A DNA stretch of 64,000 nucleotides from a virus (IMGVR_UViG_3300042870_001240); one strand, 5' to 3'. Shown: positions 23,251 through 58,726, counted from the first letter of the stretch. The notes: generated by a model from the letters alone, not told the origin. Program-made: numbers and translations.

Positions 23251-23436
23251 TTAACTTAACATTGCACGAATCGTATTCATTATTTGAATTTGTTTCGTTT
23301 GGAGTTGTTTGATTCTTGAGGTTTGGCTATCGTTCATTTCAATGTTCTCACCTTTAATTTCAGAAACTTGGTTTCCAAGTTTAGTGTGTTCATTTAATAA
23401 TTTTCCGTATTGGTCTGCTTTCTGTTGGTTGTTCAT
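23251..23436 (-). CDS. Small coiled-coil protein
   Basis: ORF followed by a terminator hairpin at about 23222-23247. Confidence 0.65.
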   Translation of the reverse strand: MNNQQKADQYGKLLNEHTKLGNQVSEIKGENIEMNDSQTSRIKQLQTKQIQIMNTIRAMLS

Positions 23437-23601
23437 AGTCTAATAATAACATAGTTTATTTAATATTAAATACCATAATTAATAATTTATATAACTCCAC
23501 CGAAAAACCCACAAATCTTTAGTTTGTGGGATGTAAAGTGGTTTTAGTTAGTTGACTTTTAAAACATTATAGTCCATAATTTAATTATGGAACTACCTAA
23601 T

Positions 23602-24045
23602 TTAGTATGAAACAAATCCATTTGCAATGTTATTGAATAAACTAAGTGCGTTTTTTTCATTTCCAATAAATTTTTCACGTTTCTGTACCGATTTAGGTGT
23701 GTAAAGAACACTGTAAAATAACACTCCTTGAGATTTATAAATCTCAAATTCTCCATATTCTAACTTTTTACCGTCCTTATAAAACTCCCAAGATAAAGGT
23801 TTTTTAATATCAAAACCACCTAAGTTTGTAATTCGAGCGTTAGGTGGAAGTTTAACAACAACTGATGATGAAATCGAATTGGGTTGTTTCCATATACCAT
23901 TTTTTCCTTTTGGATTCATATAGGATAAAAACATATCCAATGATTTTATTTCTTCAGGTGTTAATTTAGTATCAGATTGTTCCTCGATAACTCTTTTAAT
24001 GATGCGGGTTAAATCGTTTTCAGTTAGTCTTACTACTTTTTTCAT
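23602..24045 (-). CDS. Leader-family protein (MKKVVRLTENDL) located inside the IS remnant
   Basis: RLTE.DL leader; TATTTAT upstream. Confidence 0.75.
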   Translation of the reverse strand: MKKVVRLTENDLTRIIKRVIEEQSDTKLTPEEIKSLDMFLSYMNPKGKNGIWKQPNSISSSVVVKLPPNARITNLGGFDIKKPLSWEFYKDGKKLEYGEFEIYKSQGVLFYSVLYTPKSVQKREKFIGNEKNALSLFNNIANGFVSY

Positions 24046-24106
24046 AATTATATTTTTAATATAAATATCTATCAAAAAAAAAAACGATTTTTCTGAAAAA
24101 ATATTT

Positions 24107-24262
24107 TTAACCTTGATTTAAAATATATTCTCTAATTGTTTCTGGTGATGCTTCACCAATTGAACAAACAAAATAACCATCAGACCAAAAAGTTTTTTCT
24201 AACCAAAATTCTTGACTTAAAACATCCTTAAACAAGGAATAAACATATTGTCTGGTTATGGA
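24107..24262 (-). pseudogene. tnpA: 5'-truncated IS200/IS605 Y1 transposase
   Basis: Translates as ..TRQYVYSLFKDVLSQEFWLEKTFWSDGYFVCSIGEASPETIREYILNQG*, with the catalytic Y-x3-Q; HUH part missing. Confidence 0.88.
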
Positions 24263-24265
24263 ATA

Positions 24266-24360
24266 GAATCGGACATTAAACAAAAACAGGAGGAGGCGTT
24301 GCCATTAGGTAAGTCTGTGATTTCTGAAGCCCAACCATCTTTAGTGGTTGGGTAGTTCAC
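24266..24360 (+). ncRNA. tnpB 3' end / omegaRNA-like scaffold remnant at the IS right end
   Basis: ..AAACAAAAACAGGAGGAGGCGTTGCCATTAGGTAAGTCTGTGATTTCTGAAGCCC..GTTCAC resembles tnpB tails that overlap the reRNA. Expression is unknown. Confidence 0.5.
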
Positions 24361-25031
24361 GGTAACATGGAATAATAATCATTTTCAAATTGAGGGACTA
24401 ATAATACTTTACCTGAAGATTTTATACCCAATCTGTCGGCCCATTCATACAATTCTTTATTTGGTCTATCACCCATTCCAGATATATGATAAGTTGACAT
24501 CCCCCATCTATAAATCATGGTAGGTTTTCTATTGGCGTCAAATATCTTTGCGTTATTCTTGAAGGTTATGTCAAAGTCTTCACCCCAACTTTTATCAGGG
24601 AATGTGATTCTATTTAAATATGATTTGGTATACACATTACCATTATTAACCATCCCACTAATTTTAACATACTTATTATTTTCAAAGTAATAGTGGTTAT
24701 TACTACGATATATTTCATAACCAGGTCGAGATTTAATATCGTCCTCTGTTAATTTTAATGCGTTTGGAGCCAATAAGTCATCATCGTCTAATCTATAAAT
24801 GTAATCAAAATTACACTGACTAAATCCCCATCTTAACTTTTCAGAGATTGATGAGAACCTTTCAGAACAATTATAAATTTTAATTTGTGGGTGGTTAAAT
24901 ACATATTCGACATCAGGATAGTCATTAATAATTACCATTTCGGATGTCGGGTTGTTTTGTAATAAAAAAGACTGTATTGATTCCTCCAATAGAGGTTGTC
25001 TCTGATAGGTGAGAGTTAGTACTGAAATCAT
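24357..25031 (-). CDS. Glycosyltransferase family 2
   Basis: ISVLTLTYQR..L..SI.S, MVIIND, RLDDDD; the stop codon is supplied by the IS right end. Confidence 0.85.
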   Translation of the reverse strand: MISVLTLTYQRQPLLEESIQSFLLQNNPTSEMVIINDYPDVEYVFNHPQIKIYNCSERFSSISEKLRWGFSQCNFDYIYRLDDDDLLAPNALKLTEDDIKSRPGYEIYRSNNHYYFENNKYVKISGMVNNGNVYTKSYLNRITFPDKSWGEDFDITFKNNAKIFDANRKPTMIYRWGMSTYHISGMGDRPNKELYEWADRLGIKSSGKVLLVPQFENDYYSMLP

Positions 25032-25071
25032 AAGGAAAAGATAAATTATTGATGAGTTATGTAAACCATGA

Positions 25072-25401
25072 TTACAAATCAATAATTACTAATTGTTTAA
25101 ACTGAAAATCCCATTTAGAACCATATTCTTCAACCTCAAGACCAAACATTGAATCAACATTTCTTCTAATTGGTTTTGATATTTCCTTTAATTGATGGGT
25201 TTTATATAACCCCACCGAATTGTTCAATACAATATTAATAATCGTACGACTAATCGTCCTATCATCATCATTGTCAAAATCCCCTGACGCCAAAAAAACC
25301 TTTGTTTCGGTAAAGTAAACTTTCTCCACCTCAGGATAGTTCTTGAGTATATAGGACTCTATAGTTTCGGTTAATTTATTTTCTGTTATTATATATTTCA
25401 T
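25072..25401 (-). CDS. MKYIITE leader-family protein
   Basis: Leader motif; 5' DNA shared with 25414-25752. Confidence 0.75.
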   Translation of the reverse strand: MKYIITENKLTETIESYILKNYPEVEKVYFTETKVFLASGDFDNDDDRTISRTIINIVLNNSVGLYKTHQLKEISKPIRRNVDSMFGLEVEEYGSKWDFQFKQLVIIDL

Positions 25402-50582: not shown

Positions 50583-51020
50583 ATGAAATATCTTATTACC
50601 GAAAATAAAATGAATAGTGTTATGGAAAAGTTCCTTAACGATGAGTTTGAAGGGTTCTCTGATATCCATTACACTTGGGCCAACTTTAATTGTGGTATGG
50701 GAGAATGTTGTGATATGTATGCCATTGGATTTGTTTTACCTAAAGCTAATTATGATGAATATATATTTAAACTTGTTGATAGTGAGAACTATAGACCCTT
50801 CGGTAAATATGAAGACTATCCTGATGAATTACCTGAACCTTGTTATGAACATCCCGATATTAATGACCCCAAGTTTGATACAATCCTTATCAGTGATGAA
50901 ATGTATGAAAGGATGGAAAACTACTTCAGTTTTTTTGAAGATTGGGAGAATGAACTATTACGTGTTCTGAATCATATGTTCTTTATGAATGCAAAAAGAA
51001 TTAAATTACCATATTTATAA
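50583..51020 (+). CDS. MKYLITE leader-family protein
   Basis: Leader plus TATTTAT. Confidence 0.75.
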   Translation: MKYLITENKMNSVMEKFLNDEFEGFSDIHYTWANFNCGMGECCDMYAIGFVLPKANYDEYIFKLVDSENYRPFGKYEDYPDELPEPCYEHPDINDPKFDTILISDEMYERMENYFSFFEDWENELLRVLNHMFFMNAKRIKLPYL

Positions 51021-58379: not shown

Positions 58380-58726
58380 TAGTAAACATATTCATCATTA
58401 TCAAAGGTCTCAACCTCTGTTATATGGTCTAAACCATCAAAATTTTCTTTAAACCATCTAACCAAATGTTCTTGTATTTCGTCAATTCCATCCATTGAGA
58501 ACAAATTATAAATCCCTTCATATAGTTTTTCCTCCATCATAACTTCGGTCTCTTGTGACGTTCTATTAAAGAAAATAATTACGATAGAGTTTTCCGCTTT
58601 ATCCACAAAATCAATTCTACCAGAACCCCCATGATTACTAACAGTTTCATCCAAACTCATAATGTTTTTAGTTAAGTAGTTATCAATCATTTTATATCTT
58701 TGGGATTCAGTTATAAGGTATTTCAT
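58379..58726 (-). CDS. MKYLITE leader-family protein
   Basis: Leader motif. Confidence 0.75.
   Translation of the reverse strand: MKYLITESQRYKMIDNYLTKNIMSLDETVSNHGGSGRIDFVDKAENSIVIIFFNRTSQETEVMMEEKLYEGIYNLFSMDGIDEIQEHLVRWFKENFDGLDHITEVETFDNDEYVY

Follow-up and report, generated by a model that had tools for sequence, protein, structure and literature searches.

A cargo-bearing, non-autonomous IS605/IS606-like element with a putative omegaRNA module is polymorphic in a lake phage

The closest described relatives of the element reported here are IS605 and IS606 of Helicobacter pylori. They have divergent tnpA and tnpB genes, subterminal hairpins and a right end reading ...TTGGGTA(A/G)TTCAC, and they are inserted 3′ of an AT-rich pentamer without target duplication. 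The junctions of Helicobacter-type elements come after TTTAA or similar motifs, and IS606 has been reported to use TTTAT. RNA-guided homing by TnpB has been demonstrated where the element carries its own nuclease gene and is restored on the sister chromosome. In such elements the right end overlaps the 3′ end of tnpB, the flanking DNA supplies the guide, the target motif serves as the transposon-adjacent motif (TAM), and an empty allele recreates the target (PMC10055086; PMC13565253). Spread of an IS605 through a plasmid population has been described as dependent on TnpB, and transposon non-restorative homing between co-infecting phages or plasmids is a theoretical possibility (PMC13565253). 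Non-autonomous IS200/IS605 derivatives include the palindrome-associated transposable elements (PATEs), which have ends and an omegaRNA, receive TnpA and TnpB in trans, and have no protein-coding gene; gene-free elements that encode omegaRNAs and need TnpB in trans have been described (PMC10055086). The free-standing homing endonuclease genes of T-even phages (Seg, Mob) and phage morons are small cassettes between conserved genes, with a present/absent polymorphism and possibly a biased inheritance in co-infection.

New here is an omegaRNA-bearing, non-autonomous IS200/IS605 derivative with a cargo gene, which is phage-resident and naturally polymorphic. The divergent arrangement of tnpA and tnpB is found in its full-length relatives, the loops of its hairpins are nearly the same as those of IS605 and IS606, and the right end and the mode of insertion are likewise shared. 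An IS605-type element of H. pylori has 76–77% DNA identity to it over 101 nt of tnpA. On the other hand, the phage lineage has its junctions after TTTAT, resides in lake jumbo phages, and has an extra passenger slot between the left end and tnpA, and the copy described here is without both enzymes. In contrast to PATEs, and to MITE-like elements without coding capacity, it has an intact 147-aa open reading frame (ORF) with a promoter-like site, and a homing event would therefore carry cargo. The overlap of right end and tnpB, the flank as guide, the target motif as TAM and the recreation of the target in the empty allele are as in the nuclease-encoding homing elements. However, this element has no nuclease of its own, the proposed target is a co-infecting sibling genome rather than a sister chromosome, and the system is known here from sequence. 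It resembles the Seg and Mob genes and the morons in being a small polymorphic cassette between conserved genes, whereas, compared with Seg and Mob, recognition would be by an RNA guide, the nuclease would lie outside the cassette, and the boundaries are those of a transposon.

The window, by which we mean the whole stretch of 64,000 nucleotides that was analysed, is AT-rich (31% GC) and gene-dense. Its genes include those for an endolysin-like protein, a homologue of the cyanophage "tRNA ligase", Hsp70, thymidylate synthase, a sulfatase and a PAS/GAF histidine kinase. Related IMG/VR contigs of 37–61 kb are rated only 10–21% complete, which fits a jumbo phage, and the runs that contain the stretch are lake-water metagenomes. 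The features of the locus are collected in Table 1.

Table 1. Positions of the features of the element and its surroundings, counted from the first letter of the window
Feature	Position	Strand	Basis or remark
61-aa gene downstream of the insertion, same transcription direction	23251–23436	−	syntenic in L002, L003
TTTAT target / transposon-adjacent motif	23486–23490	+	directly 5′ of the left end
Whole element, non-autonomous, 870 nt	23491–24360	+	exactly absent from L002, L003, L321, L323, L324
Left end, 58 nt	23491–23548	+	96–98% conserved compared with full-length copies
Left hairpin	23508–23530		loop TCTTTAG, compensated stem
Cargo gene, 147 aa, intact	23602–24045	−	leader common to phage paralogues; body a rare ORFan
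Cargo promoter region	24046–24106	−	conserved compared with full-length copies
−10 element, sigma-70-like	24052–24047	−
TATTTATA box	24067–24060	−	in the cargo promoter region
−35 element, sigma-70-like	24075–24070	−
tnpA 3′ remnant, about the last 40 codons and stop	24107–24226	−	Pfam Y1_Tnp; tblastn; 91% DNA identity to L121
Deletion junction, 8-nt overlap of two homologies	24219–24226		comparison with L121
Last 44 tnpB codons and stop	24221–24355	+	tblastn, 93% identity to TnpB residues 355–398
Putative omegaRNA-type scaffold, three stem-loops	24249–24353	+	RNAalifold, covariance model
Stem-loops of the scaffold	24249–24275, 24287–24326, 24329–24353	+
Right hairpin	24330–24352		loop TCTTTAG, compensated stem
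Right-end cleavage motif TTCAC	24356–24360	+	complement is the TGA stop of GT2
Flank, putative omegaRNA guide	24361–24380	+	same 20 nt after TTTAT in L321, L323, L324
Family-2 glycosyltransferase (GT2), maximal ORF	24357–25082	−	Pfam Glycos_transf_2, E 1.1e-10

The element is located at the end of the GT2 gene. This glycosyltransferase has no match among GenBank phages, and 118 viral relatives were found with tblastn, aligning from about residue 17 of the maximal ORF. In the two closest of them (L002 and L003) the homology runs uninterrupted from the gene into the region left of 23490. Scanning of metagenome contigs for TTTAT followed by the right flank gave 11 empty sites, three of which are in JGI metagenome contigs (L321, L323 and L324) from the same phage as the window. 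The flanks in these three contigs are 97.7–99.6% identical to the window over 0.3–4.8 kb, with position 23490 joined directly to 24361 and the element missing. The empty site is also found in about ten more distant relatives. An earlier note on this DNA had delimited an insertion at 23491–24360, placed 3′ of TTTAT and free of a target duplication, and had proposed a search for empty alleles in related phages; the empty alleles give exactly these boundaries and the predicted joints, and comparison with the occupied allele reveals no duplication. Since the contigs of the same phage have the empty site, the element is polymorphic within one phage species. The occupied allele is present in at least 15 lake-water runs, and no copy of the occupied junction was found in IMG/VR. 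No empty-allele joint was found in the contigs of one DNA run, contigs being apt to drop minor variants.

The insertion leaves the glycosyltransferase unchanged, as the same note had claimed. In L002 and L003 the gene ends in ATG TTA CCA TAA, followed by ATTAT; in the window it ends in ATG TTA CCG TGA (24357–24368, minus strand), followed by the element, so that the stop codon is now within the element and the same protein is encoded. Read on the opposite strand, TTTAT in the target becomes ATAAA and TTCAC at the element end becomes GTGAA, with the stop codons in the same register, and the base ahead of the stop changes from A to G in a third codon position. Because both motifs give a stop in this way, the insertion is silent, and it calls for no special explanation. 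The same silent swap, AAA TAA to AAG TGA, is found in another copy (L082). Landing on stop codons was also considered as a selected feature. The TGA of the element ends a long ORF at 6 of 39 viral right-end junctions, compared with 1 and 6 in the control frames, which is no enrichment. As the count is not above that of one control frame, the landing is regarded as a by-product of the motifs, with no demonstrated adaptation.

The two hairpins of the element are subterminal, on the same strand, and have the same loop. Both ends are homologous to those of full-length copies (L121, L103, L110 and L131) that are 92–98% identical to the corresponding pieces of the window, and, at a greater distance, to those of an IS605-type element of H. 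pylori, in agreement with the earlier reading of an IS605-derived insertion with a left-end hairpin, and the element can be identified from these pieces as a non-autonomous derivative of the IS200/IS605 family. The full-length copies have the order left end, small leader gene, tnpA (149 aa), tnpB (398 aa) and right end, and their proteins match the Pfam families Y1_Tnp, HTH_OrfB_IS605, OrfB_IS605 and Cas12f1-like_TNB. In their TnpB, motifs can be recognised at the positions usual for the three acidic residues of RuvC (VDTG, VEDL and DRDLN); the assignment was visual and involved no alignment with any characterised TnpB. These copies are located in related jumbo-phage contigs with 66–73% nucleotide identity to the window phage over the shared genes. 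Two contigs (G004 and G007) with intact tnpA and tnpB and near-identical ends have genes in common with the window at 73% nucleotide identity, and G004 has further partial elements as well.

With the end motifs as queries, DNA searches recovered the same end type from more than 120 genomic loci and from about 100 viral ones. Among bacteria the nearest copy found is about 66% identical, and the only match among GenBank phages is the 101-nt stretch of tnpA, in Helicobacter phages. TTTAT precedes every inspected junction of the lineage, with 32 distinct left junctions collected. Nine of these 32 lie in a TATTTAT box, compared with 10.8% of all TTTAT sites; such insertions would put the element downstream of a phage promoter. 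The insertion site in the window itself reads AATTTAT, not TATTTAT.

These data bear on an account without transposition, in which the segment came from another phage, by illegitimate or homologous recombination, and its likeness to a transposon is incidental. Phage genomes are mosaic, and the leader and promoter of the cargo gene are repeated in this genome, which would suit such an origin. It is nevertheless extremely improbable, as the boundaries match the cleavage sites of the family to the base (TTTAT on the left, TTCAC on the right), the same ends are found at more than 30 different sites, and the exact empty alleles contradict it.

Comparison with the full-length copy L121 defines what the window copy has kept and lost. 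Three parts of the reference are present, namely 1–58 (the left end), 365–603 (the 3′ end of tnpA and, of the passenger gene, the leader part with the promoter region) and 2045–2186 (the tail of tnpB and the right end). About 1441 bp are lost, comprising the 5′ two thirds of tnpA and tnpB codons 1 to about 353, and the same deletion junction is found in L109 and L106. The ORF at 24107–24283 aligns with the C-terminal third of the Pfam profile Y1_Tnp (E 3.5e-8, positions 79–121 of 121), and tblastn aligns the remnant with residues 102–149 of TnpA from a full-length relative, which substantiates the tnpA 3′ remnant noticed earlier. The tnpB tail and right end, on the other hand, measure 142 nt (24219–24360) rather than the about 95 nt first estimated. 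TnpA is thus encoded by the full-length relatives and not by the window copy. Because no more than about residues 110–149 of TnpA remain, the element cannot be autonomous. No other tnpA or tnpB is present in the 64-kb window; the search proposed earlier for these genes with matching ends was answered only in the related phage contigs, where both are intact.

We have good confidence in the explanation of the locus as a whole as a non-autonomous, IS605/IS606-like derivative of lake jumbo phages that is moved by TnpA in trans. The parent element would have consisted of the left end, a leader-tagged passenger gene, tnpA, tnpB and the right end. A single deletion of about 1.44 kb would have removed most of tnpA and tnpB and left both ends, the passenger with its promoter and a terminator-like hairpin, and a tail of 142 nt encoding the whole omegaRNA scaffold. 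The derivative would then move as single-stranded DNA, by TnpA supplied in trans from a full-length copy, and would be pasted 3′ of TTTAT without duplication, by analogy with the known mechanism of IS608 and ISDra2. Here it would have landed, silently, at the stop codon of the glycosyltransferase, and its structurally intact omegaRNA module could act with TnpB from a sibling copy. As a point against this explanation, neither excision products nor transposition intermediates were observed.

Copies of the cargo-bearing element at other sites are consistent with this explanation. In contig L309 the 3′ part of the cargo gene and the left end are 99.4% identical to the window and adjoin a different left flank. 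It counts against the explanation that L309 contains only the 3′ 250 nt of the cargo gene plus the left end, and that its first 78 nt have no counterpart in the window. An 84% identical version of the cargo with the right end is located at a third site (L082), and the right flank in L082 and L108 differs from that in the window. In a further copy (L308) the 142-nt right end is retained and the tnpA remnant is gone. The window's deletion junction in L109 is accompanied by a 476-aa cargo and is at another site. The cargo gene is inside the element and moves with it; the earlier note had allowed that relatives might place it outside, and it is found together with the left end at the other sites. 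As the copies in L309, L082 and L109 occupy different sites, the element must have moved recently. Transposition in trans is very probable, while the source of TnpA is something that we only infer, because the window has neither tnpA nor tnpB.

The cargo gene proved to be intact and to have its own TATTTAT box, as first noticed in the sequence. The N-terminal leader of the protein reads MKKVVRLTE.DL.... The protein belongs to no Pfam family and has only 4 related clusters among 5.8 billion, and the mean pLDDT of its AlphaFold model is 46.5, too poor for a structure search. The sigma-70-like site upstream of the gene agrees with the consensus at 11 of 12 positions, as a consensus match only. 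The left-end hairpin together with a T-run (23508–23540, minus strand) is the only intrinsic-terminator-like site of the region, located immediately after the cargo gene, with the 61-aa gene following downstream. A phage moron is a gene with a promoter and a terminator of its own, set between conserved genes; here the sigma-70-like site, the TATTTAT box and the terminator-like hairpin, as consensus matches only, would be candidates for such signals.

The leader and the upstream TATTTAT box recur on many genes of the window. A box of the TATTTAT type, which contains the transposon target TTTAT, is located 5–25 nt upstream of many leader-tagged genes; boxed gene starts are at 50583, 51023 and 56844 on the plus strand, and at 58726, 36463, 34441, 26996 and 24045 on the minus strand.

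Across the lineage, at least nine different genes occupy the passenger slot that immediately follows the left end, and all are oriented toward that end. Examples are the passengers in L121, L103, L110/L169, L174, L175, L109/L162, L149 and L135/L183. Six passengers have their first 25–30 codons and the promoter in common with the cargo gene of the window, with unrelated bodies; those in L110, L121 and L103 share its leader in this way. In a sister lineage (L141 type) tnpA is located directly behind the left end, and the slot is therefore an acquisition of the present lineage. A homologue of the cargo protein, 40% identical, is found in the same slot of a decayed copy (L307:1700–2600), in which the left-end hairpin is without one arm, the tnpA tail is broken, and there is no right end nearby.

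The omegaRNA-type scaffold at the right end is predicted to have three stem-loops. The third coincides with the right-end hairpin, and by its position would also be the hairpin recognised by TnpA. In an alignment of nine right ends (MAFFT/RNAalifold), which takes in two relatives about 71% identical, the stem-loops comprise 35 pairs, 13 of them with compensatory changes. This alignment replaced an earlier one of 35 sequences, made with MAFFT, that was poor upstream of the hairpin and gave no structure. A covariance model built from the nine sequences matches the window scaffold end to end with 147.9 bits; the L109/L106 derivative and the copies that adjoin an intact tnpB score 150.8–151.8 bits. 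The earlier concern that the scaffold might be too truncated to bind TnpB is thus at odds with the full-length match. Among 50 distinct matches to the model, 95.8% of the cells are paired, compared with 33–44% when the partners are slid, and double changes are found in 30 of the 35 pairs, a result that leans toward structure because the alignment was fitted to the model. The two substitutions that the window has within stems preserve the pairs. Rfam has no match at the right end, and its sole near-threshold match, to Histone3, is a chance one inside the cargo gene and below the gathering score.

The retained right end could serve in homing. It would give rise to an omegaRNA with the flank 24361–24380 as its guide, and TnpB of a sibling copy, in a co-infecting relative or elsewhere in the genome, would cut cargo-free alleles at TTTAT plus the 20-mer. 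Recombinational repair would then copy the element and its cargo into the cut alleles, as transposon non-restorative homing between co-infecting phages. This reading supplements the transposon explanation and does not exclude it; we regard it as possible and rather doubtful. The complete scaffold, with its structure conserved through the substitutions in the window, is in keeping with it, as are the exact TTTAT and 20-nt target in the three empty siblings, which the earlier note had predicted for cargo-free phages. Intact TnpB adjoins right ends 96–98% identical to that of the window in the related phage contigs, and there are precedents in the literature for gene-free omegaRNA elements (PMC10055086) and for TnpB-dependent IS605 spread (PMC13565253). 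However, there is no tnpB in the 64-kb window, and the tnpB promoter region is deleted in the window copy. No suitable promoter for an omegaRNA was found upstream on the plus strand, where promoter-like sites do not exceed chance, and the module runs antisense to the local operon. Moreover, position 9 of the guide is mismatched in the more distant empty alleles, L002 among them, and plain TnpA transposition with drift or selection would be an alternative account of the frequency of the element. Of the RNA-guided homing first proposed, therefore, the target, the scaffold and the TnpB in relatives stand, while a tnpB in the window and a plus-strand promoter are missing.

The comparison with 23300–24600 covered the contigs of one DNA run and of three runs that are RNA or labelled as RNA. 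The RNA-library contigs over this region are only left-end, leader, tnpA and tnpB/right-end pieces of other copies, and none in these runs joins the right end to the flank from 24361 onward; contigs cannot reveal the starts or ends of RNAs. In one marine metatranscriptome (run X18), a contig of 770 nt covers 24219–24355 with 6 differences in 137 nt and continues upstream into the full-length tnpB of a close relative, which documents presence in an RNA library only and is not proof of transcription.

The alternative is that the omegaRNA module has no role, the element being a decaying transposon fragment that hitch-hikes on TnpA. The 142 nt would then owe their survival solely to a recent deletion, or to a requirement of TnpA for somewhat more sequence than the hairpin. 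We give this account a slightly better than even chance. The tnpA remnant seen in the window is missing from L308, and only a few of its codons are left in L082; erosion of this kind is what such decay would produce, and neither a promoter nor a partner nuclease is at hand in the 64-kb window. The two derivatives that retain only the terminal hairpin (L182 and L149) fit this account as well. Together with eight mini-element copies of about 118 nt that retain only part of the scaffold, they count against homing, as mobility does not need the scaffold. On the other hand, the scaffold is whole in every copy of the cargo element while the tnpA remnant erodes in L308 and L082, and it scores like the copies beside intact tnpB.

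The positions of the deletions also bear on the two readings. In four derivative types (window/L109, L100/L095, L114 and L082) the tnpB homology breaks off 8–33 nt before the first stem is reached; the end points are reference positions 2042, 2045, 2064 and 2067, and the stem starts near 2075. They may represent fewer than four independent events, as L082 may have arisen from the window type by a further deletion. This clustering of end points just upstream of the first stem argues for homing and against an inert leftover, as the retention of the full scaffold in a gene-free element of 233 nt (L123) argues for homing, whereas retention of the scaffold may simply reflect young deletions.

A broader proposal is that the IS605-type lineage is a gene-drive vehicle with an exchangeable passenger slot, in which TnpA moves the copies, those without enzymes keep the omegaRNA, sibling TnpB cuts the empty alleles during co-infection, and the passenger sweeps through the phage population. 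The passenger would belong to the leader-tagged protein families of the phage, whose members may be injected or loaded into the capsid. We consider this proposal unlikely. The parts are separated at this locus: within a virus, a guide-RNA module and a cargo gene share one mobile unit from which both enzymes are absent. With occupied and empty alleles of the same phage in nature and enzyme-bearing copies in relatives, the locus lends itself to a natural test of RNA-guided gene spread among phages. Should the guide be active, the system would amount to a naturally occurring RNA-guided gene drive that acts between co-infecting phages and by which accessory genes spread. If the guide is inactive, the locus still documents an IS605 lineage adapted to jumbo phages, with a passenger slot for at least nine genes and a harmless landing on stop codons.

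Several other derivatives have arrangements of their own. The gene-free element of 233 nt (L123:5–237) consists of a left end and the full-length omegaRNA scaffold, with a match to model positions 1–125 at 51 bits. The eight mini-elements of about 118 nt (L091, L092, L099, L101, L102, L105, L111 and L127) have identical scores; each has a left-end-like hairpin, one stem and the right-end hairpin, and they belong to the sister subfamily related to L087. In L100 (5673–6119, minus strand), and likewise in L095, an ORF of 148 aa that encodes a GIY-YIG nuclease domain (Pfam E 1.4e-5) continues in frame into the last tnpB codons, followed by a complete omegaRNA of 145 nt and the right end, so that a homing-endonuclease-type gene occupies the place of tnpB. 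In L182 (591–4998), a left end and a hairpin-only right end are found in the same orientation 4.4 kb apart, with five phage ORFs between them, an arrangement that would be either a large composite element or two unrelated remnants.
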